Source: Acidimicrobiia bacterium (lineage in GTDB: Bacteria > Actinomycetota > Acidimicrobiia > Spongiisociales > ZC4RG35). Taken from it: a DNA stretch of 47,514 nucleotides. Each line of letters opens with the position of its first letter. The stretch's first letter is position 1. Below, piece after piece: positions 13,221-43,572 of this stretch. The translations under genes and the position numbers were made by a program. Under the pieces are notes generated by a model. The model saw only the letters and a list, made by a program, of their open reading frames with translations, was not told where the DNA came from and did not search any database. Location: NCBI GenBank assembly GCA_033720975.1, contig JAWWBL010000002.1, positions 1 through 47,514 on the forward strand, written 5' to 3'.

Positions 13221-13865
13221 TCAGCGGGCGGGGTGAGCCCAACTGTCCTCGACCCTGCCCGTGTCGATCGTCCACCGCGGCAGCGTGATGTGAACGATGG
13301 GCCCCATGCCCAGGGCGAAGGCGACGGTGCCTATGCCAAACGTCCCCCCCATCAGCCAGCCAACCAACAGCACGATGATCTCGATGCCCCAACGGGTGAC
13401 CCGAATCGACGGTCCCCTCCTCGCAATTGCGGTCATGAGCCCGTCCCTTGGTCCCGGGCCCAAGTTGGCCCCGATGTACATGCCCGTGGCCAGACCGATG
13501 ATCAACATGCCGCCTGCGACCATGAGCCAGGCCACGAGCCCCTCCCCAGCGGGAAGGATGGCAACCGAGACGTCGATGACGATTCCGATGATTATCGCGT
13601 TCAAGACTGTGCCGACCCCGAACCTCTCGCGGAGCGGGAGCCACAGGAGCAGAACCGCCACCGAGACGAAAATGGACATGATGCCTACTGTCGTGCCGAA
13701 CTGAACCGCCAGGCCTTGATGGAGGACATCCCAGGGTGGGACGCCTAGCCCGGACTCGAGCATGAGGCCGATTCCGAAGCCGAAGAGGATCAAGCCGACG
13801 GAAAGTTGAGTGAGGCGGCGACGGAGGTTGTTGCCGCGAATGGGAATGAACACGGGAGCCATCAC
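13221..13865 (-). CDS. YczE-like multi-pass membrane protein
   Basis: 214 aa with GLGVPPWDVLHQGL and GANLGPGPRDGLM motifs, as I recall them for the YczE/YitT-like membrane family. Confidence 0.5.
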   Translation of the reverse strand: MMAPVFIPIRGNNLRRRLTQLSVGLILFGFGIGLMLESGLGVPPWDVLHQGLAVQFGTTVGIMSIFVSVAVLLLWLPLRERFGVGTVLNAIIIGIVIDVSVAILPAGEGLVAWLMVAGGMLIIGLATGMYIGANLGPGPRDGLMTAIARRGPSIRVTRWGIEIIVLLVGWLMGGTFGIGTVAFALGMGPIVHITLPRWTIDTGRVEDSWAHPAR

Positions 13866-13903
13866 GCTAACAATGAAGCCTCGATGCCAATAGGAAGCTT
13901 CTG

Positions 13904-14578
13904 ATGTCTGTTGATTTCACGGTCAAAGATCCAGCGGGGATCCCCTGGACCCTCTCCGAGCATCTCGACGCCGCGGCGGTGATCACCTTTCACCGCGGTG
14001 ACTTCTGAACTTACTGTCACGGCCAGTTGGCCGTCTCGGCAGTGCGTCAGGAGGAATATCTCGCCGCCGGCGGCCGGGTTTACGGCCTATCGGCGGACAC
14101 CCCTGGTCAGAACTCAGCAGTCATGGCCAAGCTGGGGATCACGATCCCGATCTTCTCGGACGAGGACAAGGAGGCGGCTGTTCGACCACTCGGGTTCGAT
14201 GACGAGAAGGACCCCAGAAAGATCTCGCTCCCCGGGACCGTGATCATTTCCCCTCAGGGTGAGATCGCCTACAGGTTCGTGGGCCGCGATTACGCAGATC
14301 GCCCCGACGAAGACGACGTCTTGGAGCATCTGCGGGGATTGGAGCTACCGGCGACGACCCAGGAAGCCGTCACACCCGGGCCGGCTGCACCCGGGCCCAC
14401 CGCGATGCCGGCCGAGGGTCTTCCTCACTATTTCCGGGGGGCCAAGTTCGCCAACCTCGCGCTACGGAGGCGTCATCGCCACCTCGGCGAGGAATTCACC
14501 GACGACACGAAGGCCTACATAGCAATGGTCGATCGCTACCTGGATGCATTGTCGGACCTCGAGGAGCGCAGGGCGTAA
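13904..14578 (+). CDS. Peroxiredoxin-like (AhpC/TSA, CxxC-type) thiol oxidoreductase; candidate selenoprotein with in-frame UGA at 14006-14008
   Basis: ATG 13904 (AGGAAG upstream) opens MSVDFTVKDPAGIPWTLSEHLDAAAVITFHRGDF, then TGA, then in frame TYCHGQLAVSAVRQEEY...GLSADTP...IFSDED. The TGA is where the family motif F(Y/H)RGxxCxxC has its first Cys. A hairpin follows the TGA. Confidence 0.5.
14009..14042 (+). promoter_or_regulatory. bSECIS-like stem-loop downstream of the in-frame UGA
   Basis: Core stem ACGGCC (14019-14024) / GGCCGU (14029-14034) with apical loop AGUU containing G-U. The loop begins 16 nt after the UGA; imperfect lower-stem pairs extend to about 14012/14041. Confidence 0.4.
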
Positions 14579-14590
14579 CGTGAGGCCCTT

Positions 14591-15316
14591 ATGGAGGGGC
14601 CTCAGGTCCAACTCGTTGCAACTTGCCTGGTAGACGCCCTCGCCCCACACGTGGGGAGGGCAACCGTGTCCGTGTTGGAGACCGCCGGTTGTCAGGTCTC
14701 GTACCCGCAAGGTCAGACCTGTTGCGGGCAGCCCGCTCACAACGCCGGATACGCGGAGCAGGCCAGGGCGATGGCCGCCCACACCGTTGACCTCCTCGAT
14801 GCGACCGAGGGCCCGATAGTCCTTCCCTCCGGATCGTGCACCGACATGATCGTGCACCATTACCCGGAGATCTTCGAAGGGACAGAGCGCGAAGAGGCAG
14901 CGCGGCGCGTATCGACTCGGACCAGGGAGCTGACGCAGTTCCTGGTCGACGATCTCGGAGCCCTCGTAAAGGCTCGTTGCGACGGTTGTTCGGTGGCCTA
15001 CCACCATTCGTGCCACGGGCTGATGGGTTTGGGGCTCGGGTCACAAGCCGACGACATCCTCTCCGAGGTCGAACGGGTGGAGTTGGACGGCGACACGGAT
15101 TGCTGCGGGTTTGGGGGCCTCTTCTCGCTCGAGATGCCTTCGGTGTCAGCGGCGATCATGGACGAGAAGCTGGACCGCATCGAGGCCTCGGGTGCAGACG
15201 TGGTCGCCGGTGGCGACGTGGCCTGTTTGATTCACATGGAAGGCGGTCTCAGGCGCCGGGGGTCTGGAGTCAGGGTCAGGCACATAGCTGAGCTGATGGC
15301 AGGCCCGGAAGCGTGA
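14591..15316 (+). CDS. lutA: Lactate utilisation protein A (CCG-domain Fe-S oxidoreductase, YkgE/LutA)
   Basis: 241 aa with two CCG motifs (QTCCGQPAHNAG, TDCCGFGGLF). First gene of a lutABC-type trio. Confidence 0.85.
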   Translation: MEGPQVQLVATCLVDALAPHVGRATVSVLETAGCQVSYPQGQTCCGQPAHNAGYAEQARAMAAHTVDLLDATEGPIVLPSGSCTDMIVHHYPEIFEGTEREEAARRVSTRTRELTQFLVDDLGALVKARCDGCSVAYHHSCHGLMGLGLGSQADDILSEVERVELDGDTDCCGFGGLFSLEMPSVSAAIMDEKLDRIEASGADVVAGGDVACLIHMEGGLRRRGSGVRVRHIAELMAGPEA

Positions 15317-16713
15317 GTCAGCCGGTCACCTTCACCTCCCGCGCCGAACGGCTGTTGGGGACTGGAGAGGCGGCTGCCGTCGACCGCGGGATGCGCTACA
15401 TGGCGGATCGGCGCCAGATGAGGATCGACGAGCTCCCGATCTCCGATGGACTCCGCGATCGTGCCAGGGCGGTCCGCATACACGCCCTGAGTCACCTCGA
15501 TCGCCTGCTGGGGCATTTCGCCGATCGTGTGACCGCATTGGGAGGCGAAGTCCACTTCGCGTCCGACGCCGCCGAGGCGAACCAGATCATCGGTGACATC
15601 CTGCGAGCTGAGGCTGCGGAGCTGGTCGTGAAGGCCAAATCGATGGTCACCGAGGAGATCGAGCTCAACGAGCATTTAGAGCGCTCGGGTCATCGAGTCG
15701 TGGAAACCGACTTGGGAGAGTTCATCGCACAGCTCGCCGGTGAGCCACCCAGCCACATCATTGCTCCCGTCCTCCACAAGACGCGCCGGGATGTTGGCGA
15801 GCTGTTCGCGGAAAAGCTCGGTATCGAGCCCACCGACGATCCGGTGCGACTGAACGCCGCGGCACGCGAGCACCTCCGACCCGTGTTTCTCCAGGCGGAT
15901 GCGGGCATATCGGGGGTCAACATGGCCGTGGCTGAGTCCGGCTCTCTCGTGTTGGTGACCAACGAGGGCAACGGGCGAATGGTCACGTCCGCGCCGCCGG
16001 TGCACATTGCTGTCATGGGGATGGAGAGAATCGTGGCCCGATGGGAGGACGCCGGTGTGATTCTCGAGGTCCTCGCCAGATCTGCCACTGGCCAACGCAT
16101 GTCCGTCTATACCAACGTCGTAACAGGGCCGCGTCGAGACGGTGACCCCGACGGGCCGGACCGTCTCCATGTCGTGGTGGTTGACAATGGCAGGTCAGAG
16201 ATCCTGGCGGGGGAGAACGCCGAGATCCTCGCGTGCATCAGGTGCGGGGCCTGTCTCAACATATGCCCGGTCTTCAGGACAGTCGGGGGTCATGCCTACG
16301 GGACCGTCTACTCGGGCCCCGTGGGCTCGGTAGTGACTCCTGGCCTCCACGGGATGGATCCCTGGTGGGACCTTCCGTTTGCGTCCACGATGTGCGGAGC
16401 GTGCCAGGACGTGTGCCCCGTCCGTATCGAGATCCCACGAATGCTGCTCAACCTGCGCCGACAAGCAGTCGACGAGAGTCGACTCCCGGGATGGCTGGGA
16501 AGGGGCCTGTCTGCGTATGCGCGGGCAGCAACCCAGCCGGCCAGATGGGCCAGAGCAAAGAGGTGGGCCCATCGTCTCAGCGGCTTCTTCGCCGCGAGGG
16601 GCTGGCTTCGGCGTGTGCCCGGCCCGGCGCGGGGGTGGACGAGGTATAGGGACTTTCCTCGCCCGGCAAAGCAATCGTTCGCAGAATGGTGGGAGACGGA
16701 ACGTGAGACGTGA
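15313..16713 (+). CDS. lutB: Lactate utilisation protein B (4Fe-4S protein, YkgF/LutB)
   Basis: 466 aa with ferredoxin-type motifs CIRCGACLNICP and CGACQDVCP. GTG start overlaps the lutA stop. Confidence 0.85.
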   Translation: MSQPVTFTSRAERLLGTGEAAAVDRGMRYMADRRQMRIDELPISDGLRDRARAVRIHALSHLDRLLGHFADRVTALGGEVHFASDAAEANQIIGDILRAEAAELVVKAKSMVTEEIELNEHLERSGHRVVETDLGEFIAQLAGEPPSHIIAPVLHKTRRDVGELFAEKLGIEPTDDPVRLNAAAREHLRPVFLQADAGISGVNMAVAESGSLVLVTNEGNGRMVTSAPPVHIAVMGMERIVARWEDAGVILEVLARSATGQRMSVYTNVVTGPRRDGDPDGPDRLHVVVVDNGRSEILAGENAEILACIRCGACLNICPVFRTVGGHAYGTVYSGPVGSVVTPGLHGMDPWWDLPFASTMCGACQDVCPVRIEIPRMLLNLRRQAVDESRLPGWLGRGLSAYARAATQPARWARAKRWAHRLSGFFAARGWLRRVPGPARGWTRYRDFPRPAKQSFAEWWETERET

Positions 16714-17356
16714 AGACTTCCTGGCCAGGGTGGGTCGGTCCGTGATGAGTGCCACTCTCCCCGATATACCGGCGTTGGACTCGGAGATGCCGACGCTTCC
16801 CCCGACAGACCTCGTCGCCCTATTCCGCGAGCGAATTCGTGAGGTCGACGGGGTCGCTCACGGACCGGTCGGCCGAACGGCGGTACCGAAGGTGGTCTCG
16901 GGGATCGCCGCCGGTCACGCCTCCAGCCGGTATCTCGCCTGGGATGACCTCCCGGTTCCGGGTGTGACGTCCGGGCTCGACCGGGAAGGTCTGGAGCGGG
17001 TCGACCACGAGGTGCCGGAGCAAGATCGCAAGGCCCACCAGGTCACATATGAGTCCGTCGACCTTGGCGTCACGGGCGCCGAGGCGGGACTGGCTGAGAG
17101 TGGAAGTGTCGTTCTGTCGCACGGCCCGGGCCGGCCCCGAATGGCCAGCCTGATCCCCGATGTCCACGTAGTCCTGCTCCACGTGAACCGGATGGCCCGC
17201 ACCATCTCGGACTTGGCCCGGAGGCACCCCGAATGGGTGTCCGAGACTGCCAACCTCGTTTTCGTCACCGGGCCCAGCCGGACCGGCGACATCGAACTTC
17301 ATCTCAATCTGGGTGTCCACGGGCCGCGGCACGTTCACGTCGTGATGTACCAATGA
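16703..17356 (+). CDS. lutC: Lactate utilisation protein C (YkgG/LutC)
   Basis: GTG at 16703 overlaps the lutB 3' end (alternative ATG at 16745). LUD-domain-like sequence ...GVTGAEAGLAESGSVVL...FVTGPSRTGDIE. Confidence 0.75.
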   Translation: MRREDFLARVGRSVMSATLPDIPALDSEMPTLPPTDLVALFRERIREVDGVAHGPVGRTAVPKVVSGIAAGHASSRYLAWDDLPVPGVTSGLDREGLERVDHEVPEQDRKAHQVTYESVDLGVTGAEAGLAESGSVVLSHGPGRPRMASLIPDVHVVLLHVNRMARTISDLARRHPEWVSETANLVFVTGPSRTGDIELHLNLGVHGPRHVHVVMYQ

Positions 17357-26476: not shown

Positions 26477-26737
26477 TTGAATGATTTTCCGTTCCTGTTT
26501 CTCACCCGGGCTGGTTGTCATCTGTGTGAGGATGCGTGGCCGGTGGTGAGGGCTGCGGCCAAACGAGCCAGAGTGCGGATAGAAGCAGTCGACATCGAGC
26601 AGCGCGATGACCTGCTCTCGAGGTTCGTTTTGAGGATTCCGGTGGTGCTGGCGCCTACAGGCCGCGTTCTGGCAGAAGGTCGTATCGATGACCGACGGTC
26701 TCTGGCCAGGGCGATGAAGGACTCAAGCCCGGGTTAG
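26477..26737 (+). CDS. Glutaredoxin-like (thioredoxin-fold, DUF836-type) small protein
   Basis: 86 aa, TTG start. LFLTRAGCHLCEDA CxxC motif and later RIPVV, as in glutaredoxin-2-like proteins. The 3' end overlaps the convergent cytochrome c gene by 4 nt. Confidence 0.6.
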   Translation: MNDFPFLFLTRAGCHLCEDAWPVVRAAAKRARVRIEAVDIEQRDDLLSRFVLRIPVVLAPTGRVLAEGRIDDRRSLARAMKDSSPG

Positions 26738-27756
26738 CCGACTGGTGGCGGGGAGACCTTGGCCTCCTCGTCACCTTCGACCGGCATCTCGTCGGTTCCC
26801 CCGTCACCGGCGGTGTCGTCAGCGGGCGCTTCGACCAGGCCGCAGTCGACAACGGCTGTCTCAGGGTCTTCTCCACCGAACCGCACCCGTTCGAATGCTG
26901 CAACAGCGGCTATCTGCTCCTCCGTGAGGCTGGCAGCGAAGGCTGGCATTCCACCCCGGACCGTCTTGTTGGTGTCTCCGTAGGTTCCTCCTGCAAAGCC
27001 TGGAGAACCGAGTGTCACCCATTCGATGTGGTCGGTGCATGCTCCAAACGTGGTCAAGACCCCGGTCAGCGCCGGGAAGTTCCCGGCACCCTGACCGCTA
27101 CCCCCGTGGCAACCCGCGCAGTTGACACCGGCGACGGCTCCGCCTCCATATATCTCCTGACCGAGGGCTATGAAGTCCTGCCCTCCGCCTCCTACCGCCT
27201 GACCGGTGAATGCCGATCCGTCGCAGTTCACGATGTCACCCGTGACCACGTCGGCTCGCAACTCGGTTCCCTCGCCGCACGCTCCGGTGGTCGAGCCGCC
27301 CAAGGCGAACAAGGCGAACAAGGGAGCTATGAACAGGACGGAGGCGAGCCACCGCGGCATGCGGAAGTTGGTGCGCTCTCTGATGCCCGCTGTGGGGACC
27401 GTGATCACGTCCGGGAGGTTGACTGCTTCTGCTGCCGTCACCTCCGGAGGCACCGGGGCCCTTCCCACGGCCGCGGGTGTCGGGTCGGAAACGGCGGGAG
27501 TTGGCGCTGGTGCCGGTGCGGCGGATGGTGTGGGCATCTCCACTGTCTCTTCATGATCCGGTGATTCGGCCTCGGCCGGGGCGGGCTGTACTTGGCTCGC
27601 TGGCGACGGAGTGTCGAGAGGTGCTCCGCCGGCCCAGGCGGAGAGGATGTCCTCGACGCTTGCCCCCGTCTCGGCGGCTCGAGCCTCAGCCGAGCGTTGT
27701 GTGAGCGACTCGGGAATTCCAAGAGCTGCGGCGGCGGCGCTGAGGACATCGCTCAT
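26734..27756 (-). CDS. Membrane-anchored class I monohaem cytochrome c with conserved cytoplasmic N-terminal module
   Basis: From ATG 27756 (MSDVLSAAAAALGIPESL...): Pro/Ala-rich linker, TM helix, CAGCHGG haem motif, GGMPAF Met ligand, acidic tail. Confidence 0.8.
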   Translation of the reverse strand: MSDVLSAAAAALGIPESLTQRSAEARAAETGASVEDILSAWAGGAPLDTPSPASQVQPAPAEAESPDHEETVEMPTPSAAPAPAPTPAVSDPTPAAVGRAPVPPEVTAAEAVNLPDVITVPTAGIRERTNFRMPRWLASVLFIAPLFALFALGGSTTGACGEGTELRADVVTGDIVNCDGSAFTGQAVGGGGQDFIALGQEIYGGGAVAGVNCAGCHGGSGQGAGNFPALTGVLTTFGACTDHIEWVTLGSPGFAGGTYGDTNKTVRGGMPAFAASLTEEQIAAVAAFERVRFGGEDPETAVVDCGLVEAPADDTAGDGGTDEMPVEGDEEAKVSPPPVG

Positions 27757-27757
27757 G

Positions 27758-28507
27758 TCAGTTCCCATCGCTCTGGGATCGTGATAGATACTCGACGAGA
27801 GCCGACAAATCCTGGGGTGACAGAGAATGGGCCGGGTGGGTGCCGAGGCCGCCGACGATCGCCTCCAACTGGCCCGAGGTCAGCCTTGCCCCAACGTTCG
27901 CCAGATCGGGGCCAAACCTTCGTGTGCCCAACACCTGGTTCGAGTCGTTGAGCGTGACGTCTCCCAGGCCCACATCCGCGACGACAGGTCTCACCATCTG
28001 GGTGTGACATGCGGCACATCCAAGGCTCAGGTAGATGTCTCTGCCCTCGAGCGCCGTCTCGGAGTACGAGATCGCGCTCGTCCGGGCGCCTGGCTCGTCA
28101 GCGAGCGATGCCGGCCCGACGAGGCCTATCAAGGCGATGACTGCGAAGAGCCCGATCGCGCCCACCAGCACACCGACCGGATTGTCTTTTACCCCCACAA
28201 GGACAGGCGGCTTGTACCGGCCGACGGGGATCGGTGCCTCAGGCTGGGGGGTGTCCGGGACGGGGATGTCGATCACGGGAGCCGTGGTGACAGGTTCGGG
28301 ATCCGCAGCAGCCTCGTCCTCTTCGGGAGCCGTGGCTGCCGGTGAAGGCTCCTGTGTTGTCGCCGGCGGCGGCGCCCCGCCAGCCCAGGCGGAGAGGATT
28401 TCGTCGAGGCTCGCCCCGGTTTCGGCGGCGCGAGCTTCGGCAGATCGTTGGGTCAAGGACTCTGGTATGCCAAGGGCGGCGGCAGCGGCGCTGACCAGAT
28501 CACTCAT
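27758..28507 (-). CDS. CcoO-like monohaem cytochrome c (cbb3 oxidase subunit II homologue) with the same N-terminal module
   Basis: From ATG 28507 (MSDLVSAAAAALGIPESL...): TM helix, LEGRDIYLSLGCAACHTQMVRP and GTRRFGPDLANVG as in CcoO. Overlaps the upstream gene by 8 nt. Confidence 0.75.
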   Translation of the reverse strand: MSDLVSAAAAALGIPESLTQRSAEARAAETGASLDEILSAWAGGAPPPATTQEPSPAATAPEEDEAAADPEPVTTAPVIDIPVPDTPQPEAPIPVGRYKPPVLVGVKDNPVGVLVGAIGLFAVIALIGLVGPASLADEPGARTSAISYSETALEGRDIYLSLGCAACHTQMVRPVVADVGLGDVTLNDSNQVLGTRRFGPDLANVGARLTSGQLEAIVGGLGTHPAHSLSPQDLSALVEYLSRSQSDGN

Positions 28508-29975
28508 CGTCGACCCCCTTGGAGACGAGCAGTTCCTGTGTCGTGGCCTTCCCGCTGGTGATGGTGCCGAGGACGACGGACGCGTAGGCGAGGTGACCGA
28601 GAAGAGTGACGATTGCAAACAACGCACCGAGAAGCAGAAGGGTGTCCGCGGTAGCGCCCACGCCCGCGCCCCATCCTTCGCCAAAGTCGGCGTAGGCCGC
28701 GGAGTTACTGCCGGCCGTCCACGAATAACCCGTCACCGCACCTGCGGTCGCGAGTGTCACCAAAGTGCCCACAGAACCGACGAGTGTGTACCTGACAAAG
28801 GACCGGACCCGATCACCGGAGTGAATCTCCCGGCCGACAAGCCGAGGAAGAGCCGACAGTGACGTGGCGGCTACGAGCAGGGCCCCAACCCCTGCCATCC
28901 AGGCGATTTCGATTCCCTCCCAGAATGACGTGAGAGCGGTCACAGCCGCTGCGGACCGGAAACCGGCGACAGCTGCAAGGGCCGCAACGATCGCGGCCAA
29001 GTAGAGACCGATGACGCCGGCACGTACCCCGTGGTTAGTCCCAAGATCGCCCCACGACCCCTCGAGGGTCAAAGAGACATTGGCGGCGTTTGCAAGTGCG
29101 GCCACGGGAAGCGCGAGTCCCAGTGCCGCAACGACCCCGGATATCCAATCTGGCCCCGGGCCGAATGTCAGTTGAGCCAGGCCCCACCACACGGAGGCGA
29201 AGCCCAGAGACCAAAGACCGACAAGGGCGAGCTGTCGGCTCGCAAGCGGAGCATCGAGCTCCTTGACCACCGCGTAGTAGAGAAGCCCAGTTCCCAGCGT
29301 GAGCAGCACCATCGTGACCATTCCGCCCGACACGAACATGTCGACGTATGCGACCTGGACCGCCTCGAGAAGGGGCAGATGGCCCACCAGGTTGGCCAGG
29401 AAGAGAAGAGGCATCCAGACCGTCCCGGCGATGACGAACCAGACTGTGACATAGCTGCGTGGCTCAGTCCTGACAGCGATCGTTCGAAGGGCTGTCAGCG
29501 CGGGAATGGACAATGTGCCCAGCATGGGGATGTCGAGCCACCACGGAAGACCAAAGGGCTGCCGGCCGGAGCCAAAGCCAAAACCTATCGCCACGACGCC
29601 GGCCGTCACTATGCCAGCCATGCCCAACAAGCCCAGACGGGCCAGGCCGGTGGAGGAAAGTCGGGCCCCGGTGAGCCGAGGGAGCACGTAGTAGACGCCA
29701 CCGACTAGTGAGATCACACCAAAGCCGATCACCAGGGAGAGGTTGGCCATCGGTTCCACGCGGCCGAAGGAGACGGGGATCAGGTCCCCGAACCTCAGCG
29801 CCACCAGTGACAAAACCGAGAGGAGGCTGCCCAATATGAGAAAGACTGCACCAACCACGAAGTGGCTGACGGCTAACCGATCTTCGCCGGCTCCTCCGCC
29901 GAGCAGCGTTCGGATGTCAGTTGTCTCGGTCTCGGCCAACGGTCTCCCCGCGGATGATGGGACGGCGGGGAGCAT
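28500..29975 (-). CDS. CcoN-fold (haem-copper oxidase subunit I-like) membrane protein lacking the canonical His ligands
   Basis: 491 aa, multi-TM. Segments SFGRVEPMANLSLVIGFG, GLLYYAVVKE and FGPGPDW parallel CcoN signatures, but only 5 His are present and none is in an HH or HxH arrangement. Confidence 0.65.
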   Translation of the reverse strand: MLPAVPSSAGRPLAETETTDIRTLLGGGAGEDRLAVSHFVVGAVFLILGSLLSVLSLVALRFGDLIPVSFGRVEPMANLSLVIGFGVISLVGGVYYVLPRLTGARLSSTGLARLGLLGMAGIVTAGVVAIGFGFGSGRQPFGLPWWLDIPMLGTLSIPALTALRTIAVRTEPRSYVTVWFVIAGTVWMPLLFLANLVGHLPLLEAVQVAYVDMFVSGGMVTMVLLTLGTGLLYYAVVKELDAPLASRQLALVGLWSLGFASVWWGLAQLTFGPGPDWISGVVAALGLALPVAALANAANVSLTLEGSWGDLGTNHGVRAGVIGLYLAAIVAALAAVAGFRSAAAVTALTSFWEGIEIAWMAGVGALLVAATSLSALPRLVGREIHSGDRVRSFVRYTLVGSVGTLVTLATAGAVTGYSWTAGSNSAAYADFGEGWGAGVGATADTLLLLGALFAIVTLLGHLAYASVVLGTITSGKATTQELLVSKGVDDE

Positions 29976-30110
29976 AACTTGTCGGTGGATCGAACCTCAT
30001 TACGACCAGACCGCAAGCGCATCCGGGCAGCGACGGGTTGCCGCCGCGAGTCGTTCGTGTGGTAGAAACGCTCCTACAAGCAAACCGACCCGGGCCACTA
30101 CCAAGGAAAC

Positions 30111-30740
30111 ATGTACCGCCTCGCGGAACTCACCGACAGCCGACGAAAGCTCATTGGTGCGACCCTGCTCGTTTTGGGGCTCGTTGGGCTGGCTCTTGCA
30201 GTGTTTTGGATCCATTGGTCTTCGTACCCCGAGACAGAGCTCGTTGACGGGGTAGCGGTGCCGTACGTGGTGGATCACTTCAACTGGTTCCCTCGCGGAG
30301 CTTTGTGGAAGGGGATCGGCTACTTGATCGCGGGTGGCGCCGCGACCTTCGCAATGATCGGAGCTGCATTCCTATGGGTCCTGAATCAGAAGATGACATG
30401 GGCCCGCGCCACGATCGCCGCGATGATCGCCTGGTTTGCTCTCGTTTTCTTCTTTGGCATTGTCCCGTCAGAATGGCTCAACTTCGCACAGACGGACCTC
30501 GAATGGGGCAACGATCCGGCCATCACGATTCCTCCGTTCCTCGTGCTTGGCAACGAAGTCTCCCTCAGTTGGGCGGCGATCAAGGACTCGATCTCGATGG
30601 GATATCACCTGGTCATGCTCGGAGTGGCAGGGGCCCTCGCCATCGGGATCCAGAAGATGAAGGACGGACGGCCTGCCCACAAACAGCCTGACGCGCTCAC
30701 TTCTCCCTACGGCAGGCCTTTGGTGAAGGGCGAGCGCTGA
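30111..30740 (+). CDS. Multi-pass membrane protein, first gene of the Rieske/cytochrome b operon
   Basis: 209 aa, AAGGAA upstream of the ATG, 4-5 hydrophobic segments. Its stop overlaps the start of the ferredoxin-type gene. Confidence 0.6.
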   Translation: MYRLAELTDSRRKLIGATLLVLGLVGLALAVFWIHWSSYPETELVDGVAVPYVVDHFNWFPRGALWKGIGYLIAGGAATFAMIGAAFLWVLNQKMTWARATIAAMIAWFALVFFFGIVPSEWLNFAQTDLEWGNDPAITIPPFLVLGNEVSLSWAAIKDSISMGYHLVMLGVAGALAIGIQKMKDGRPAHKQPDALTSPYGRPLVKGER

Positions 30741-31189
30741 TGCCTAAGGGAGTCGTCGATGAGACGCCGCCGATCCGCGATGACTATCAGCTCGCCCTCG
30801 TGGAGGGTGACTACTTCAAGGACAAGCTCAGGCCAAAGCAGTTCCTCCACATCGACCAATCGGAGTGCATCCTTTGCGAAGGGTGTGTGGACATTTGTCC
30901 TTGGAAGTGCATTCACTACCTGTCGCTTGACGCCATAGACGAAGCAGTCAACGTCGACCATCCGGCCGAGGACGGTCAGAACCTCGGGTTCTTCATCGTT
31001 GACGAAGACGAGTGCACACGCTGTGCGCTCTGCATCGACCGGTGCCCGACCAATGTCATCACGCTGGGCAAGTTCGAGGGCTCTCTCGCGGATCAAGCCG
31101 GACAATTGGGTCTTGACCGCCGGCCGTGGGACTTCGACACAGGACAGCGTGACTTCAAGAACGGTTACTCGTACGGTATGCGGTGGTAG
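30740..31189 (+). CDS. 2x[4Fe-4S] ferredoxin-type protein
   Basis: 149 aa with two CxxCxxCxxxCP motifs (CILCEGCVDICP, CTRCALCIDRCP) and no TM segment. Confidence 0.8.
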   Translation: MPKGVVDETPPIRDDYQLALVEGDYFKDKLRPKQFLHIDQSECILCEGCVDICPWKCIHYLSLDAIDEAVNVDHPAEDGQNLGFFIVDEDECTRCALCIDRCPTNVITLGKFEGSLADQAGQLGLDRRPWDFDTGQRDFKNGYSYGMRW

Positions 31190-31201
31190 GGCGAGGTAGG
31201 A

Positions 31202-31990
31202 ATGGCTAACGGAAACGACAAGACCTCTCTCCGCGAGAGGATCGGCGAGAAGGTCGGAGAGACGACCGAGAAATTGTGGAAGTCTCAACTCGCCGAAGCG
31301 ATTCTGCGTCCCGGCTCACCGTTCAAGCAGGGCTATTCGGACAGCCCGCGCAACCGCTCATATGTCGTCATGAACAACGTGCTCTATCACCTCCACCCGG
31401 TCAAGGTGAAGCGTCACGGCGTCAAGCTCTCCTACACCCTCTGCCTCGGCGGGCTGAGTTTCTTCTTGTTCATCCTCTTGACGATCACGGGCATCTTCCT
31501 GATGTTCTATTACACACCTACCGCCGAGTTGGCCTATGCCGACATCGAACGGCTCTCGACGGATGTTGCCTTCGGGTCGCTGGTCAGGAACCTCCACCGC
31601 TGGGGCGCCCATCTCATGGTCCTGTCGGTCTTCCTGCACATGAGCCGGGTCTTCTACCACGGCGCCTACAAACCACCTCGAGAGTTCAACTGGGTCATTG
31701 GCGTGATCCTTCTCTTCCTCACGCTGCTGCTGTCATTCTCGGGCTACCTACTCCCCTGGGACCAGCTGGCCTTGTGGGCCGTGACAGTCGGAACCAACAT
31801 GGCCGGGTTCGTCCCTGTCGTCGGGTCCCAGGTGAAGTTCTGGTTCCTGGCAGGCGTGGAGGTGAGCGGCGCGACGCTGCTTCGCTTCTATGTGCTCCAC
31901 GTTCTCGCGTTCCCCTTCATCATCGTGATATTCATGGCAGTCCACTTCTGGCGTGTCCGCAAGGACGGCGGGATATCCGGGCCTCTTTAA
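31202..31990 (+). CDS. Cytochrome b6-type protein (N-terminal four-helix half of cytochrome b)
   Basis: 262 aa. Haem ligand pairs in [11 protein letters not shown] and VLHV...[17 protein letters not shown] (LPWGQ-like), and TLCLGG matching the YCLGG haem-ci Cys context. Confidence 0.85.
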
Positions 31991-32000
31991 GGAACATCGA

Positions 32001-32951
32001 ATGGTTGAGATTCCAGAAGACCTGTTGAGGAGATCGGCCGAGGCCAAGGCCAAGGCCCTTGGCGTCCCGGTTGAAGACGTCTTGGCCGAGATGAAAGGGG
32101 AGGGCCCGCCGGTCGAGGTCCCACAACCCGAGCCGGTTGCAAAGCCGGCGGCCGGTGAGTCGACGGACGAAGAGATGCCGGTCGAAGAGGCCGGGACGGT
32201 CTCGTCACTTGAAGAGCCGGAGTCAAAGGGCGCCGGCTCCGAGCCTGACATGACCCCTGAGCCTGCTGATCCTGGGGATGTCGAAGCCTCCGAGACGGAG
32301 CCCGCATCCTCTGTAGCGACGATGGAGGCCCCGCCCCCGGCCGGCGACGGCAATGGCTCTGGAAACGGCAAGGTGGCGACTTCGGTCACGCCGCGACCGA
32401 CCGCCAGCCCCGCAGGCCTGCCCGAAGGGGTCAGGACCCAGCGGCTGCTGACCGTCGTCAAAGCTCGGGCGATTCAGGACGTCAAGACCGAGCCGCAGGA
32501 CAAGGTCAACACTTGGCCTCACCTGATGCTGATGGAGTTCGGCGCGCTGCTTCTCATAACGGGGCTCTTGATCATCATGTCGGTCGTCATCCACTCGCCC
32601 CTCCTCGACCCGGCCAATGTCAACGCGACCCCGAACCCGTCCAAAGCGCCCTGGTACTTCCTGGGGCTCCAGGAGCTTCTGTCGTACTTCGATCCGCAGA
32701 TCGCGGGGGTGACGATCCCGACCATCACTGGGATGATCGGCTTCATGATGGTCCCCTTCGTCGACAAGAACCCGTCCAACCGCCCATCGGATCGGAAATT
32801 CGCCATCGTGTTGTACACGATCTTCCTGGCCGGCTCGGCGACGCTCACGATCTTCGGGGTTTTGTTCCGGGGCAAGGGTTTCAACTTCTCTTATCCGTGG
32901 AAGGACGGGATCTTCTTCGATGACTTGAAAGACTGGGTGCACTTCGAGTGA
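32001..32951 (+). CDS. Subunit IV-type protein (C-terminal half of cytochrome b) with N-terminal module and acidic linker
   Basis: From ATG 32001 (MVEIPEDLLRRSAEAKAKALGVPVEDVLAEM...): about 150-aa acidic/Pro-rich linker, then three TM helices with SKAPWYFLGLQELL (PEWY-type motif). Confidence 0.8.
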   Translation: MVEIPEDLLRRSAEAKAKALGVPVEDVLAEMKGEGPPVEVPQPEPVAKPAAGESTDEEMPVEEAGTVSSLEEPESKGAGSEPDMTPEPADPGDVEASETEPASSVATMEAPPPAGDGNGSGNGKVATSVTPRPTASPAGLPEGVRTQRLLTVVKARAIQDVKTEPQDKVNTWPHLMLMEFGALLLITGLLIIMSVVIHSPLLDPANVNATPNPSKAPWYFLGLQELLSYFDPQIAGVTIPTITGMIGFMMVPFVDKNPSNRPSDRKFAIVLYTIFLAGSATLTIFGVLFRGKGFNFSYPWKDGIFFDDLKDWVHFE

Positions 32952-33826
32952 CGTTCACAAACACGATCCTGATCGCCGTCGCCCTTTTTGCCATCCTCGC
33001 CGCGGCTGGTGCCTTCACGATTGCCTTCCGCCGCGCCAGGAGCGAGCGGCCCTCCGATCCGACCGACGGGGTTTCTGCCGAGACCATTAAGGCAGACCGG
33101 TCGATGGAGGGGGTCGAGGTCGTCGCCGTGGAGCCCGAGCCCGAGGCTGACGTCGTCCAGTCGGTCGAGGAGGGCGACGAGGAGCCGCAGCTGGAGCCGG
33201 CGGGCGTCGGCGTTGCCGTCATCGAGGAACAGCGGATTGTCGAAGTGACCCCTGAAGAGGGCGGCGTGACCCGCAGACAGTTCTTCAACAGGGCGATCAC
33301 CGCAACTTTCGGATCGTTCATGGGGCTGATGGGCCTGTATTCACTCGTCTTCACCTGGCCGAAGCTCTCGGGCGGGTTCGGGACTGACGTCGACGCAGGT
33401 GAGCTCGGCGAGGTTCAGGGCTCGGTGTTCGCTGCCGACGGGTCGATCCTGCCGCTGTTCGTCCCGGAGGCGAGGGCATACGTGGTTCCCTCCCCGACGA
33501 ACCTCTCGAAGCAGTTCGAGGGTCGGAGGGTGGAGGCCGGAGGGCTCATGGCGCTGTTCCAAAGATGCGTTCACCTGGGTTGCCGTGTCCCGTGGTGCGG
33601 GCCGTCCCAGGGATTCGAATGCCCGTGCCACGGTTCGAAGTACAACTCGATTGGCGAGTACTTCGCCGGGCCCGCTCCCAGAAACCTCGACCGTTTCGAG
33701 GTCGAAGTCGTCGGTGGCCGATTCATCATCAAGACCGGCTCGATCGTCGAGACTCCGCGGGCTTCGGCGCTCTCATCGGCGTATCCGAGGGGGCCGAGTT
33801 GTATTGGCGCGACCGCTGAGGCTTAG
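32948..33826 (+). CDS. Rieske [2Fe-2S] protein
   Basis: 292 aa, GTG start overlapping the previous stop. CVHLGC and CPCHGS cluster motifs, plus an internal twin-arginine motif TRRQFFNRAI after an N-terminal TM helix and acidic linker. Confidence 0.85.
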   Translation: MTFTNTILIAVALFAILAAAGAFTIAFRRARSERPSDPTDGVSAETIKADRSMEGVEVVAVEPEPEADVVQSVEEGDEEPQLEPAGVGVAVIEEQRIVEVTPEEGGVTRRQFFNRAITATFGSFMGLMGLYSLVFTWPKLSGGFGTDVDAGELGEVQGSVFAADGSILPLFVPEARAYVVPSPTNLSKQFEGRRVEAGGLMALFQRCVHLGCRVPWCGPSQGFECPCHGSKYNSIGEYFAGPAPRNLDRFEVEVVGGRFIIKTGSIVETPRASALSSAYPRGPSCIGATAEA

Positions 33827-33829
33827 AGC

Positions 33830-35518
33830 GTGACCTCGAACATCATCACAGTTCTGGCCATCGTCGCCGGGATCACCTGGCTTGGGGTTCTCCTGGTGGC
33901 GGCGATCCGGAACCGCGGGAGCGAAGAGGTCCCTTCCAACATTCGCCCAGGTATCGATGACCAGCAGCTTGAGACACGGCGCCTGGAGTCCGGCCAGAAG
34001 GCGGCCATCGCCGCGTCGGCTTTCCTGGCCGTCTCTCTCCCTCTCTATTTCCTCAGCGAGCCGAGCCGGCAAGAAGGGTTTGTCGAGGAGTTTGCACATG
34101 CCTCTGAGGAGCGCGGAGAGCATCTGGTCGAGGAGTTCGCCTGCTTCTCGTGCCACGGCCCTCTCGGAGCTGGCGGCTCTGCCTCGTTCGTCGAGAAGCG
34201 GTCCGGTGTCACCGTGTCCTGGGAGGCGCCCGCTCTCAACGACGTCCTCTACCGATACGACGAGGACGAGCTCAACTTCTGGATCACCTTCGGCCGTGGG
34301 AACACCCCCATGCCCGCTTGGGGGCTCGCCGGCGGTGGCCCCCTCAATGAGGCTCAGGTCGTTGACATCGTCAACTACCTGAAGACGATCCAGATCCCGC
34401 AACAGGAAGCTGCCGCCAAGGCAGCCTCCCAGGTCGATATTCAGATCTCGCGCTTGAACAACGCCGAAGCGACGGTCGAAGAGGCGATCCTCAACCAGCG
34501 CCAGGTTCTCGCCGAGATAGCCCAGGCGCCGGCCGACGCACTGTTCGTTGGGCCCCTGGCTGTTCGCGCCCGGGATCTTCTCGACGCTGCCGCCACCGGA
34601 ATCGACACCGACGACGACGGCCTCTCGGATGCGGTCGAGGCCGAGCTGTCGTTGATATCCGCTGAGGCCTATGACTACTTCCAGGGGATCGAGCCGGTCA
34701 CCCTCGATCCCGAGATTGCCGACAACGACCTGCTCGTATCGGCAATGGCACAGCTCGAGGAGGGGGCGGATCAGGACCCGATCTTGGGTCAGTACCTAGC
34801 TGCCGTCGAAGCCATTCTCGAAGGCCAGGACCTGACGAGCGATAGCGATGGTGACGGGATCTCCGATGAGGCAGAGGCGGCCATTTCGGGCCAGTTGGCC
34901 GAGGCTTCCCGTGCGACGATCCCGGCCGGGATAGCGGTGGTGAGTCTGAGCCCGACCAGCACGGAGTCAGTGCCCGACGTGTCCGACAGGGCCACTGCCA
35001 CCCGTCTCGTCGGCGGGCTCGAGTCAGTTGCCATAAACACATCCGTTGCCGCGGAGAACTTCGACAAGCTCTTCAACCAAGAATCTGCCGGGCTCACTTT
35101 CCTGCTCGACGCCCAGCGGGCCAGGGCGTGGCATGTCGACATCGCAGGGGTGGCTGATTCGATGGGAGTCGGTGAGGAGGAGGCCGAGAGGGCAGTGGCG
35201 CTCTTCAACGCAAACTGCGCCCGCTGCCACACGGCCGGTTTCAGCGCAGGCGTGCCTTACACCCAGGAGATCGGATCGGGTGGGTTCGGCCCGGCGCTGT
35301 GGGATGGCCGGCCCGTCGTCCAGTTCGGGGAAGCCGCCGATCCCGAGGAGGACCTCCTCATCCAATTCCTGATAAGAGGCTCGGAGGCACAGAAGCCTTA
35401 CGGCCTCAATGGGTTCGGCTCGGGGCGGATGCCCGCATTCGGGGCGGTCCTTTCCCAGGAGGACATCGCGCTGCTTGCCCTGTACCTTCGTAGTGGCAAC
35501 TTGAGCGGAGTTGAGTAG
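33830..35518 (+). CDS. Membrane-anchored dihaem cytochrome c with large inter-domain insertion
   Basis: 562 aa, GTG start, N-terminal TM. CFSCH (aa 105-109) with TPMPAW, and CARCH (aa 463-467) with GRMPAF. About 260 aa separate the two haem domains. Confidence 0.8.
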   Translation: MTSNIITVLAIVAGITWLGVLLVAAIRNRGSEEVPSNIRPGIDDQQLETRRLESGQKAAIAASAFLAVSLPLYFLSEPSRQEGFVEEFAHASEERGEHLVEEFACFSCHGPLGAGGSASFVEKRSGVTVSWEAPALNDVLYRYDEDELNFWITFGRGNTPMPAWGLAGGGPLNEAQVVDIVNYLKTIQIPQQEAAAKAASQVDIQISRLNNAEATVEEAILNQRQVLAEIAQAPADALFVGPLAVRARDLLDAAATGIDTDDDGLSDAVEAELSLISAEAYDYFQGIEPVTLDPEIADNDLLVSAMAQLEEGADQDPILGQYLAAVEAILEGQDLTSDSDGDGISDEAEAAISGQLAEASRATIPAGIAVVSLSPTSTESVPDVSDRATATRLVGGLESVAINTSVAAENFDKLFNQESAGLTFLLDAQRARAWHVDIAGVADSMGVGEEEAERAVALFNANCARCHTAGFSAGVPYTQEIGSGGFGPALWDGRPVVQFGEAADPEEDLLIQFLIRGSEAQKPYGLNGFGSGRMPAFGAVLSQEDIALLALYLRSGNLSGVE

Positions 35519-35887: not shown

Positions 35888-38800
35888 TCAGGTCCTGGCG
35901 CGCAGGTCGAGGACCCGCCGACGCATCTCACAATCTCCCAGTACGTGGATCTGTTCGAGCACCGAGTCGAGGATCTCTCGCGCTTCGTCGGTCTCGCCGC
36001 CGTGAATCAACACCTTGGCCAGCTCGACTTTGCCAGGGATCACGGCACCGTTGAAGTTGTGTTTGGTGGCTCTGTCGATGATTGCCCGTAGTGCGTTGTC
36101 CGGGTCCCGGCGCGCCTTGAGCACGTAGGGCAGAAATCGCGGGTTGGAAGCCAGGTCCTTAAGGCTTGCGTTCGCCTCCCCGGTGGCGATTCGGCCCAGC
36201 ACGCCTGCGTAATTGAGCTCGGCGTACAACATCTCCCAGAGTCGCCCATTGCGTTCTGCCATCTCTCGCGTCGCGACGATCCGGTCCATTCCCTCGCTGA
36301 GGTTGCCTTCAAGGAGGTCCGTCATTCCTCGAGCGACCGACAGAACCAGCGGCGTGGGCAACTCGGTGCCGGTCTGCTCTGCATCCATCAAGAATGAGAC
36401 CGCTTCGGACGCTGCATCGAGGTGTCCACCCAAAGTGGCCGCCGCGGCAGCGTTGATGATGGCAGTGTCCCGATAGATGGGGTCCTTGGCGATAGAGCTG
36501 CTCCGTCTGCCCATCTCAATCGCCTCTTCGTAGTTGCCGTATACCGCCGCGATGAATGCCAGGCCCTGGTAGCCGAAAGCAACGCACCGGTTGTTTCCCT
36601 CAGCCTCACCGAATGCGATGACCTCTCGGCACAACTCAGCGGTTTCTTCCGGCATGCCCGCCGAGGCCAGTGCAAATACGAGAGTGATCGTCGACTTGAA
36701 GTAGGGATATGGATCAATCGCCCGGTTGGCCCGAGCCCATGCCTGAATCGACCGTCCAGTTTCGATCGCGCCCAAAGGATCTCCCGTGACGAATCGGGCC
36801 CATGTCAGCCACGTCCGGGCATACGCAAGACCGGTCTCGTCGCCTGTCCTCTCGGCTATCGCTTCCGCCTCGTCCAGGAAACCGGTGTTATTCGTCTGGT
36901 CTATCCGGAACCCCGCAGCATGTCCGCGCCACACGAGCCACCACATGCGGAGCCTTTCGTCCTCGAGCCGGTCGACGATTTGCTGATGTTCCACGAGGAT
37001 GTCATCTAGGCGAAGCAGATGGGCCCGGTAATAGAAGACGATGGCCCAGTCGAGTATGAGCTCGATCAGTTGGCGGTCGCGATCAGTGGTCGACTCCGCT
37101 TCGGTCAGCATCTGGTAGCCGTTGTCGAAGTGGGCCTCGGCTTCGACTAGCGCGTACCGGTCCATTGCCTTCCGACCGGCGGCCCGCAGGTAGTGCACAG
37201 CCTTGTCCAGAACCTGCCCTTGGCGGTAGTGGTAGGCGAGAGTCTCTGTGACTTCTTCGAGCCTCTCGGCAAACTGAACTTCGATCGCCCGGGCAGCCCG
37301 CGCGTGTAGTGAGACCCGTTCGGCTTTGAGCAGCCCCTCATAGGCCACGTCCTGAGTCAGGGCATGTTTGAAGAAGTACTCCAGGTCGGCGTCGTGTCTC
37401 CGCTCCCGGATCAGATCGGCCACCTCCAGGTCGGCGAGGCTGGGATCGAGAACCTCGGTCCGCGTGGCGACGCGCTTGATCACGTCGTAGAGAAACTCTC
37501 TACCGACCACAGACGCCTCTCTGAGTATTTGGCGACGGTCGGTATCGAGCCGGTCGATCCGCGCTGCGATCACGCCGCGAATCGAAGTGGGAAGGTCTGC
37601 TTCGGTGAGCGACCCTGTCACACGCCATCCGTCGCCTTCTCGCTGAACAGTCCCTGTTTCGATGAGCGAGTTGACGATCTCCTCGACGTAGAAGGGGTTT
37701 CCGTCGGTCCGTTCCACGATGAATTCGAGGAGCTCGGGCGGGGGGTCGTTCACCCCGAGCAGAGAGGCGACCATTTCCCCGGTCTGCCGCGGGGAGAGAG
37801 GGGCCAGCTCGATCTCCCTGAGCAAGGGGAGTCGGTTTGTGAACGACGGGCGGTAGTTGGCGATGATCACCACCGGGGCGCTCAGAGCCTCGAGGAGGTC
37901 CCGGACGATCGCCACGGTCGAGGGGTCGGCCCAGTGGAGGTCCTGGAGCACTAGCACCGTTGGCGCCCTCCGGCACAACCCACCTACCACCGCAAGGAGG
38001 CTTTCGAGTAGTCGATCCTGGAAAGAGTCTTTCTCGAGGGCTGCGTCGGGCCGCTCAGGCAGTCCGTATAGCCTGACGAACGGGTCCAGAACCCTGTCAA
38101 CGTCTTCGACCAGGACCCCGATTTCGGAGCGGAGCTTGCTCGAGATCGAGCTCTGGGTATCGCGTTCGCCTACACCGATCGCGTTTGAGATGAGATCGAC
38201 CAGAGCCGCATACGGGATGTTCTCACCGTATGGGTAGGCGCGACCCTCCAGCCATTGCACGTTTCCTTCGACGCGGGACTGGAACTCGGCGAGCAAACGG
38301 GTCTTGCCCGCCCCGGCCTCGGCCCTGATCCCAATGACGCTTCCTTTGCCGTCCCGGACGTTCTCGACGGCGCCAAGAAGAATCCCGAGTTCCTCATGGC
38401 GGCCGACGAATCCGGCTTGTCGCCTGGAAGGGGTGGCGCGAGTCTCGAGTGGCCCCACGACCTTTTTCACCAGGGTTGGGCCCGCCTTGCCCCTCAGCGC
38501 GTGCTCTCCATGGTCCTCCAGCTCGAAAACCCCGCCAACCGCCGCCGCAGTCTCCGGGCCGATCAGGATCTCACCCGCCTTCGACAGGTCCTCCAACCTC
38601 GCTGCAACATTGATCGTGTCGCCGAGAGGGCCGGTGTCGGCCGCGTCGAGTGCTCCCGCGCTTGTGATCACCACCCCGGTGTTGATCCCTGAATGCATCT
38701 CGAGCGGCCGCCCGATGTCCTTTTCGTAGCGAGGGCTGATCTCGTCCACCAGCGCGTGGATCTCGAGCGTGGCACGAACCGCCCTTTCAGCATCGTCCTC

Positions 38801-39505: not shown

Positions 39506-40114
39506 CTATCCGTAATAGCTGAGGATCTGAAGCTCGGTTGAGAGGTCGACCTGCCGCACTGCGACCCCGTCGGGCACGGTGACGCGAGCAGGCGCGAAAT
39601 TGAGAATCGAAGCGATGCCGGCCGATATCAGCGACTCGGTGACGGACTGCGCGGCCGTGGCCGGCACGGCCAGGATGGCCATGTCGAACCGATGCTTCCC
39701 CGCATCGGAAGTCATGGCACTCACATCTGAGACCCTCACACTTCCGACGGTTTCTCCGATCCGGTCCGGGTCGATGTCATACAGGGCGACGACGTCGAAG
39801 CCTCTCTTGGCCAGCCCCGAGTAGCGGGCGAGCGCGGTTCCGAGGTTGCCGGCGCCGACGATCGCCACCCTCCTTCGATGTTCGATCCCGAGCTCGCGCC
39901 GTATCCGGTCCCGCAGCGCCGGCACCGAGTAACCCACACCGCGGGTTCCCTGGAACCCCAGGTCGGACAGGTCTCGCCGTACGTTGGCCGCGTTCACGCC
40001 TGCTGAGTCGGCTAGAGCATCAGACGAAACCGTTTCGCTTTGCCCCTCGACCTCTTCGAGCAGTCGCAGGTATCGAGGCAAGCGTGAAACCGTGGCTCGT
40101 GACAGGTCGCTCAT
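39506..40114 (-). CDS. rex: Redox-sensing transcriptional repressor Rex
   Basis: 202 aa. N-terminal winged helix TVSRLPRYLRLL, GFQGTRGVGY, Rossmann VAIVGAGNLG, C-terminal LNFAP. Confidence 0.9.
   Translation of the reverse strand: MSDLSRATVSRLPRYLRLLEEVEGQSETVSSDALADSAGVNAANVRRDLSDLGFQGTRGVGYSVPALRDRIRRELGIEHRRRVAIVGAGNLGTALARYSGLAKRGFDVVALYDIDPDRIGETVGSVRVSDVSAMTSDAGKHRFDMAILAVPATAAQSVTESLISAGIASILNFAPARVTVPDGVAVRQVDLSTELQILSYYG

Positions 40115-43109: not shown

Positions 43110-43572
<463 letters not shown>

Follow-up and report, generated by a model that had tools for sequence, protein, structure and literature searches.

Does the TGA that interrupts a peroxiredoxin (Prx)-like reading frame in an Acidimicrobiia bacterium end the gene, or is it read as selenocysteine (Sec)? 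The frame lies at 13904..14578 on the forward strand of a 47,514-nt stretch of contig JAWWBL010000002.1 (assembly GCA_033720975.1), referred to here as the window. An earlier note on this DNA had proposed a selenoprotein gene in which the TGA takes the place of the first Cys of a CxxC motif and is followed by a hairpin. Judged from the comparison with related loci, TGA 14006-14008 is very probably a genuine Sec codon.

Reading from ATG 13904 gives 34 sense codons (MSVDFTVKDPAGIPWTLSEHLDAAAVITFHRGDF) and then TGA 14006-14008. Past the TGA the same frame continues with TYCHGQLAV..., 189 further sense codons and the stop TAA 14576-14578. The full selenoprotein gene (13904..14578, forward strand) has 224 codons with Sec as codon 35, followed by TAA, and the same architecture is found in L001, L003 and related loci. 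In the mechanical list of open reading frames (ORFs) the downstream part is present as a 183-aa ORF with a TTG start (14027..14578), and translation together with this list confirmed the frame, the TGA and the downstream ORF of the earlier note. A Shine-Dalgarno-like AGGAAG (13892..13897, forward strand) can be read from the sequence 6 nt 5' of ATG 13904, where L001 has AGGAG and L003 has AGAGGAG.

With the TGA read as Cys, Pfam identifies an AhpC-TSA domain (PF00578) at residues 4-123 (E 7e-18, 65.1 bits against a cut-off of 26) and also a Redoxin match (E 1.5e-10). As the PF00578 match spans residues 4-123, the domain crosses the stop codon, and 13904-14578 is one gene with the TGA inside its AhpC/TSA domain. 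The Prx-like (AhpC/TSA, thioredoxin-fold) domain comprises residues 1 to ~145 (13904..14338, forward strand), as seen from PF00578, the structure 2cx3 and the model of the homolog P0136 described below. It had been claimed that the downstream ORF alone would lack both its active site and half of the fold. The whole UxxC motif (U being Sec) is indeed absent from it, but only 41 of the ~145 fold residues are lost. Elsewhere in the window TGA is an ordinary stop, used by 25 of the 44 predicted genes, and a scan of the window for TGAs with coding signal on both sides gave no convincing candidate for other selenoprotein genes.

Peptide patterns were used to collect related loci from GTDB species genomes (47 loci) and from JGI metagenomes (80 loci). 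Since the patterns lie far from the TGA, the scans are neutral between Sec and Cys. The sampled set consisted of 129 loci and the window, i.e., 130 sequences holding the region, with 104 distinct 94-codon segments. All 130 have TGA at exactly this codon, and TGC, TGT or any other codon was found in none of them. Clade A is made up of metagenome-assembled genomes mostly labelled Acidimicrobiia and has the sequence RGDF-U-[TS]YCHGQLAV (61 distinct sequences). Clade B1 (31 sequences) belongs to Chloroflexota/Limnocylindria and has RGDW-U-PYCNGQLVS, and clade B2 (12 sequences) comes from Dormibacterota- and Acidobacteriota-labelled genomes and has ...GQLAS. Both B clades share 32-37% sequence identity with the window protein. 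The window has U35-T-Y-C38, and of those among the 130 sequences that were read nearly all have U-[TS]-Y-C or U-P-Y-C.

Homologs with Cys came from a profile search run exhaustively over 1.84 billion cluster representatives, which returned 733 relatives, 121 of them at E <= 1e-10. Distant full-length homologs with the same two-module architecture carry Cys at the TGA column, e.g., FNRGDWCPYCNGQL and FYRGDWCAYCNGQL. Among ten aligned full-length distant homologs this column holds Cys in eight and Ser in two, and the Cys forms are at most 37% identical to the window protein. The position of the TGA at the first Cys of a CxxC motif was thereby borne out. The TGA (14006..14008, forward strand) is assigned as U35, the first position of UxxC, and TGT 14015..14017 (forward strand) as Cys38, the second residue of the motif, which aligns with the SPVC Cys of 2cx3. 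Cys38 is invariant across the homolog alignment, as are Arg31, Asp129, Asp132, Arg133, and Arg190. According to PMC13188914, a Sec/Cys pair signature is a criterion used for defining selenoproteins.

The coding signal continues on both sides of the TGA. Pairwise differences within clade A at codon positions 1/2/3 are 0.18/0.12/0.49 upstream and 0.27/0.20/0.56 downstream. Variation is much stronger at position 3 than at the other two, so both flanks are under protein-level selection in one frame. A further in-frame stop or frameshift was seen in one sequence only (L097), on a contig with Ns, and represents an assembly-gap artefact. The earlier note had held that unrelated stops or frameshifts in orthologs would speak for a pseudogene; apart from this artefact none was seen, and the TGA is kept in at least three phylum-level lineages.

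Just 3' of the TGA the window contains a stem-loop of the selenocysteine insertion sequence (SECIS) type (14012..14044, forward strand), which according to the RNA fold and the published criteria consists of a lower stem, a 3-nt bulge, an upper stem and an AGUU loop. The upper stem ACGGCC/GGCCGU (14019..14034, forward strand) pairs 14019-14024 with 14029-14034 and is supported by pairing, synonymous entropy and folding energy. The apical loop AGUU occupies 14025-14028 (G14026, U14027) and begins 16 nt past the UGA. In the well-supported part of the lower stem, the 5' strand (14015..14018, forward strand) pairs with 14038-14041 across the bulge 14035-14037, and in the window the lower stem extends outward to 14012-14018/14038-14044. 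The stem, the loop and the spacing are thus present as the earlier note had read them.

A 45-nt fold of the region has an energy of -20.4 kcal/mol (z = -3.64 relative to shuffles) and the hairpin 14019-14034 alone one of -10.0 kcal/mol. Under loose SECIS rules ~8% of the 1,412 TGA triplets in the window (63% G+C) precede a hairpin of at least 6 bp by chance, so a hairpin in a single sequence is weak evidence; the full window fold ranks in the top 2% of the TGA triplets. It is the comparative signal and not the lone hairpin that is decisive for recoding, since a TGA in 130 of 130 sequences far exceeds chance.

The bacterial SECIS model, as given in PMC13188914, has a loop of 3-9 nt, an upper stem of 4-16 bp, a G in the first two loop positions that is usually followed by G or U, a spacing of 16-37 nt and a minimum free energy of -7.5 kcal/mol or lower. 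The window element passes on all four published criteria (4-nt loop, 6-bp stem, 16-nt spacing, -10.0 kcal/mol). The same is true for all 61 clade-A sequences (L009 via a stronger alternative hairpin) and for 78 of the 104 distinct sequences when only contiguous stems are counted. The bulged hairpins of clade B fit the model only when bulged stems count.

In clade A the codons +4 to +8 relative to the TGA read CAC GGC CAG TTG GCC (61 distinct sequences), the exceptions being one GCT and two sequences with a residue other than His at +4. Synonymous codon choice has an entropy of 0 across codons +4 to +7 and of 0.12 at +8, compared with ~2 at the invariant Arg-4 and Gly-3, which use four to six codons each. 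TTG is the only codon seen for Leu+7, whereas CTG or CTC serve in the remaining Leu columns. The third-position divergence falls ten-fold, from ~0.5 to 0.046, in the hairpin codons. The window hairpin thus combines this synonymous suppression with the fit to the SECIS spacing and to the loop-G rule that had been put forward for it.

Pair counts over 58 distinct clade-A sequences showed 99.1% of the cells in the upper stem to be paired. The lower-stem pairs 11-35, 12-34, and 13-33 form in 52-57 of the 58 (90-98%) and the pair 10-36 in 43 (74%); the outer lower-stem pairs are weakly supported. The hairpin of clade B1 is GCAGCU[GGUC]AGCUGC, whose loop lies 20 nt past the UGA; it is 92% paired and shows a single GC to CG swap. 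Clade B2 has ACGGGC[AGUUG]GCC(U)CGU (100% paired). A near-identical peptide is therefore encoded with a different hairpin in each clade. Pairing falls when the partners are slid out of register. The loops AGUU, GGUC, and AGUUG all have G-U at positions 2-3 and start 16-20 nt after the UGA, with CGUG in B1 as the one exception. The hairpin is under RNA-level selection, and as covariation within the clades is nearly absent, this case rests on the synonymous suppression and the clade-specific hairpins.

The element can also be compared with the SECIS of the E. coli fdhF type. Both form a stem-loop inside the coding region just past the UGA and have a small apical loop with G-U. They differ in their stem sequences, and the window element has a spacing at the minimum of the model and no match to an Rfam SECIS family. 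The loop GGUC of clade B1 is presumably identical to the fdhF loop.

Several observations weigh against Sec decoding or against what is proposed for the protein. No compensatory changes were found in the clade-A stem among the 58 sequences, which is because the stem never varies, and stems scarcely vary within the other clades either, the B1 swap being the only covariation. The spacing of 16 nt lies at the lower limit of the published model. None of the Rfam SECIS families matched, either at the gathering threshold or with E values up to 10 allowed, where only noise was seen; bacterial SECIS elements are thinly covered by Rfam (bioRxiv 10.64898/2026.04.03.716425). All of the evidence comes from metagenome assemblies, and the activity and physiological substrate of the protein are read from motif and fold alone. 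Finally, selA, selB, selD and tRNA-Sec were found neither in the window nor in the 691 kb that flank the first 50 related loci.

These flanks are at most 10 kb each. ARAGORN and Rfam found no tRNA-Sec in the window, and ARAGORN found ordinary tRNAs only in the 49 of the 50 loci that it covered, apart from one odd call in L026 (17906-18001), a 96-nt "tRNA-???" with the 4-base anticodon cctc. This call is probably a false positive, and Rfam found nothing there at E up to 1. A tblastn search with SelA, SelB, and SelD of E. coli gave no match in the 691 kb. Pfam searches of window genes 23-44 (20 of the 22 scanned) showed respiratory-chain, Rex, cyclase, and other genes and no sel genes. Selenoproteins are reported from Actinobacteria, Chloroflexi, and Acidobacteria (PMC1794560), and selA, selB, selC, and selD are reported for 84 of 84 complete genomes of the Actinomarinales, an order of Acidimicrobiia (bioRxiv 10.64898/2026.04.03.716425). 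For the window gene, support for the Sec trait would accordingly be placed at the level of the lineage only.

How the gene appears in public databases bears directly on the alternatives. A search of 5.8 billion public proteins gave 174 matches, and all 120 matches listed are 151-190 aa long, i.e., shorter than the 224-aa query. The truncated calls are of two kinds, 172-190 aa starting just past the TGA or ~151-156 aa starting from a later Met. The 13 public sequences that were read fall into the same two kinds, those from just past the TGA beginning with MAxRQxEF…, and the C-terminal extension is retained in every one. The public gene call for the window itself (P0001) begins 73 residues late. 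Two matches could be traced to DNA in three loci (L001-L003), where a 34-aa mini-ORF had been called just 5'. Translation of these loci gave 34 codons, TGA and 189 codons, with 58-66% identity. Gene callers have cut the selenoprotein short in all public records examined.

That the callers treat the TGA as a stop, and that public records hold only truncated products, would agree with a real premature stop in a decaying Prx-like gene or with a TGC or TGT miscalled as TGA. A pseudogene or a sequencing or assembly error of this kind is hardly conceivable, as all 130 independent assemblies, drawn from three lineages, share this TGA, and another stop or frameshift is seen only in the one contig with Ns. 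Moreover, substitutions 5' of the TGA are biased to third positions, so the N-terminal 34 codons are still selected as protein. The locus could instead hold two genes, a 34-codon ORF ending at the TGA and a shortened Prx-like protein starting at the position of Met45 or at TTG 14027, with the hairpin in a regulatory or coupling role. The callers made exactly 34 aa + 180 aa in L001, L002, and L003, and Met is found at +10 in 82% of the clade-A sequences. However, this start is not conserved: the window has Ser at +10 and its public call P0001 starts far later, while in clade B about half of the sequences have Cys there, and those read show no Met. The 34 residues form the start of the thioredoxin fold and together with UxxC align to the full-length Cys homologs and PF00578, whereas the downstream product would be without both redox residues. 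As the Shine-Dalgarno also sits 5' of ATG 13904 and not of an internal start, we find two genes very improbable.

The UGA might also be recoded as something other than Sec. Near-cognate or suppressor read-through might insert Trp, Cys or Arg, or Cys might be inserted via tRNA-Sec when selenium is scarce. Structured RNA 3' of a stop codon can stimulate read-through, and no Sec machinery was found in the window and the sampled flanks of these genomes. Yet the TGA stands at the redox-active Cys column of a CxxC motif, with the Sec/Cys pair signature, and the hairpins, with the conserved G-U in their loops, agree with the bacterial SECIS model of the SelB type. The Sec trait is also known in these phyla. 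Trp or Arg at the position of the nucleophile would inactivate the motif, and if Cys were inserted, TGC or TGT would be expected at times among the 104 distinct sequences, where none was seen. Such recoding is on balance unlikely, and a Sec codon is the reading that we prefer.

What is directly supported is the conserved TGA, the coding constraint on its two sides, the RNA constraint on the hairpin, the Cys homologs, and the fold. If the codon is read as Sec, UGA 14006 would be decoded as Sec35 by Sec-tRNA(Sec) delivered by SelB, which would be recruited by the loop of the in-frame stem-loop 14012-14044 as the ribosome reaches the UGA. The product would then probably act as a thiol/selenol-disulfide oxidoreductase and cycle between a selenol/thiol form and a Sec35-Cys38 selenenylsulfide. 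This cycle might reduce or exchange disulfides or act on another oxidised substrate, a classical peroxidase mechanism being less likely. The helical module at the C-terminus would belong to the functional unit, supply the invariant Arg190 and may aid the binding of a partner or substrate.

The active site was compared with those of solved Prx-fold proteins. In an alignment with BCP/PrxQ structures (E 1.5e-4 for 2cx3), Sec35 falls on Thr/Ser and Cys38 on the peroxidatic Cys of PxxxTxxC, while Arg31 falls on Pro and Pro110 on the catalytic Arg. Of the canonical peroxiredoxin site (PxxxTxxC and Arg), only Cys38 is kept. Since Sec aligns with Thr and Cys38 with the peroxidatic Cys, the site is a thioredoxin-style UxxC that sits on a peroxiredoxin scaffold. 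The window protein is therefore predicted to be a Prx-like oxidoreductase of the CxxC type and not a Sec-peroxiredoxin. That it acts as an oxidoreductase rather than as a peroxidase seems somewhat the better guess from the motif.

As structure model we used that of P0136, a full-length Cys homolog with 37% identity to the window protein. The model (pLDDT 97.5, pTM 0.92) has a Prx fold in residues 1-145, an extended linker and a two-helix hairpin in residues 170-216. Its core fold is common to AhpE from M. tuberculosis (1xxu), Bcp4 from Sulfolobus (3hjp), BCP from A. pernix (2cx3), and ResA from B. subtilis (1su9). Against solved Prx-fold proteins the target-normalised TM-scores are 0.83-0.89 over ~150 residues and the query-normalised ones ~0.6. 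In the comparison with the PDB, AhpE, Bcp4, BcpB, and ResA match the ~150-residue core only, and none of the structures listed reaches further. Unlike the window protein, the solved AhpE, Bcp4, BCP, and ResA have no Sec, and AhpE and BCP carry the PxxxTxxC motif that is not conserved in the window protein.

Selenoproteins of the Prx-like UxxC kind have been known since 2004, and the statement that they occur in bacteria agrees with an established predicted family. In PMC9312934, PMC13188914, and PMC2398784 the thiol:disulfide oxidoreductase of the Prx-like kind, with the domain pfam00578 and a UxxC or UxxU motif, is predicted from sequence and has no function assigned. The same sources give WP_010940744.1 as reference protein and list "Prx-like 1 (pfam00578, UxxC)" with 225 members in Global Ocean Sampling (GOS) data. 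By the rule of the field (PMC9312934), proteins are assigned to one family when they share both the domain and the Sec motif. As the pfam00578 domain and UxxC match, the window protein is placed in the Prx-like UxxC kind, an assignment made by domain and motif alone.

Within this kind of selenoprotein the window protein appears to form a subfamily of its own. It shares with Prx-like 1 the Pfam domain, UxxC with Sec for the first Cys, Cys homologs and an in-frame SECIS directly 3'. It differs in having a C-terminal two-helix module or a ~69-aa partner gene, of which the accessible text of the family literature makes no mention; unidentified fused domains are reported there for the related Prx-like 2 and 3 groups. 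It also differs in having Sec in 130 of 130 close relatives, and in its hosts, which are Acidimicrobiia, Limnocylindria-type Chloroflexota and Dormibacterota-type genomes, whereas Prx-like 1 was first reported in Deltaproteobacteria and marine plankton.

Two other groups of Prx-like selenoproteins are similar in part. PrxU (NF040737, TxxU) has the AhpC/TSA fold, an in-frame UGA and a downstream bacterial SECIS as well. In PrxU, however, Sec is the peroxidatic residue, whereas in the window protein Sec would replace the Thr and a Cys stays at the peroxidatic position, and the match to NCBIfam NF040737 reaches only 16.1 bits against a cut-off of 270. The best NCBIfam match is NF040769 (SelL-related redox protein) with E 6e-11 and 42.3 bits, below the cut-off of 120, and SelL has UxxU where the window protein has UxxC. 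We take SelL and PRX_like2 (cd02970) to be Prx-like folds with a CxxC-type motif in which the second Cys is the peroxidatic Cys and the rest of the peroxidase site is absent. A review gives the cd02970 selenoprotein as UxxS, not UxxC.

The C-terminal extension pointed out in the earlier note is real, and it is helical in the confident model of the Cys homolog P0136. This two-helix module comprises residues ~168-224 (…GLPHYFRGAKFANLALRRRHRH…DRYLDALSDLEERRA; 14405..14575, forward strand) with helices at 170-190 and 192-216 in the P0136 model, and it contains the invariant Arg190. The pTM of 0.92 for the model as a single body suggests that the module may pack against the Prx fold. No Pfam or NCBIfam family matched it.

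The module is fused to the Prx-like domain in Acidimicrobiia and Chloroflexota and is a separate gene with an overlapping or abutting stop in Dormibacterota-type genomes. In clade B2 the Prx-like ORF stops and a separate ORF of ~69 aa follows, which begins MARGDRPLPFEQLEPYMRGAKFAALALSRRH… after the junction GGAGG…TGAnATG. This small protein is translationally coupled to the Prx-like ORF. An example of the separate gene is found in L041 (10433-10650), with equivalents in L030, L034, L042-L049, L127, and L131. At least 240 public clusters contain the small protein, under the only name "hypothetical protein" and with no recorded Pfam domain.

The neighborhood of the gene is well conserved in clade A. 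In the window, a gene for a yczE-type membrane protein (13221..13865, reverse strand; NCBIfam NF052291, 220 bits against a cut-off of 205) lies divergently upstream, and a gene of this type always adjoins the selenoprotein gene in clade A. Downstream, lutA (14591-15316), lutB (15313-16713), and lutC (16703-17356) follow in the same direction (14591..17356, forward strand), starting 12 nt past the stop of the selenoprotein gene. The lut genes have CCG and LUD domains, and LutB scores 491.7 bits with TIGR00273 (cut-off 444.8). Nearly all clade-A loci have lutABC linked, and in most of them lutA starts 9-12 nt past the stop. The selenoprotein gene and lutABC probably form an operon, in Acidimicrobiia only. 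Neither a lut linkage nor any other conserved neighbor was found in clades B1 and B2. The association is lineage-specific, as B1 and B2 are without it; a functional link to lutABC as a property of the whole family was rejected on this ground, and the association may be no more than a gene order kept by descent.

Together with the first codons of lutA, the 12-nt spacer can form a 10-bp hairpin (14579-14611: GUGAGGCCCUU[AUGG]AGGGGCCUCA) with the lutA AUG (14591) in its apical loop, and CCCC…AUGG…GGGG hairpins are likewise present in most clade-A loci. Pair counts for this lutA-start hairpin gave 61% paired, no better than in slid registers, and the covariation was no higher than in shuffles. Such a hairpin could couple translation of lutABC to completion of the selenoprotein ORF. 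In a sub-branch of clade A (L087, L088, L090, L091, L098) an insert of ~1.5 kb precedes lutA, with LutA at +2083 compared with ~+585, and the selenoprotein gene ends in TGA instead of TAA.

Five clade-A contigs (L008, L012, L013, L020, L022) come from bins labelled Boseongicola, Acidobacteria, Gemmatimonadetes or Gammaproteobacteria. As they show the gene order of the Acidimicrobiia loci (RNR, yczE, Sec gene, lutABC), they are probably mis-binned. The lutA-like CCG protein of the window (14591-15316) has a weak match to NF045663 "diclust_near_Sec" (E 1e-7, far below the cut-off), a name that suggests a family defined by its closeness to genes for selenoproteins. We mention only as a lead that thiol-type selenoproteins may have CCG-domain proteins as partners. 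Further genes in the window encode a cytochrome c, a COX1-like oxidase, a Rieske/cytochrome b complex and NuoB/D/E-like subunits (26734-35518 and 43031-46185), a Rex-type regulator (39506-40114) and a 1076-aa adenylate cyclase/AAA protein (35888-39118). With respiratory-chain, Rex, and other genes in the window, the host fits an aerobic or facultative actinobacterium.

Taken further, the UxxC domain with its detachable two-helix partner might constitute an uncatalogued, always-Sec redox module that gates lutABC in Acidimicrobiia, an idea that we consider a long shot. If it were true, translation of LutA would depend on completion of the selenoprotein ORF and hence on Sec insertion and selenium supply.

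Knowledge of how Sec is encoded is not changed by this gene. Members of the family are common in Acidimicrobiia of sediments and in Chloroflexota and Dormibacterota-type genomes of soils, and the public labels of the family are "hypothetical protein" or "AhpC/TSA family" for fragments without the active site. That the close relatives all have Sec, with Cys only in distant homologs, suggests an advantage of Sec that Cys does not replace. The module that is split off or fused could help to identify the partner or substrate of a class of Prx-like selenoproteins with no function assigned. Correcting the records would add a selenoprotein, and the selenium requirement that it implies, to abundant, uncultured lineages.

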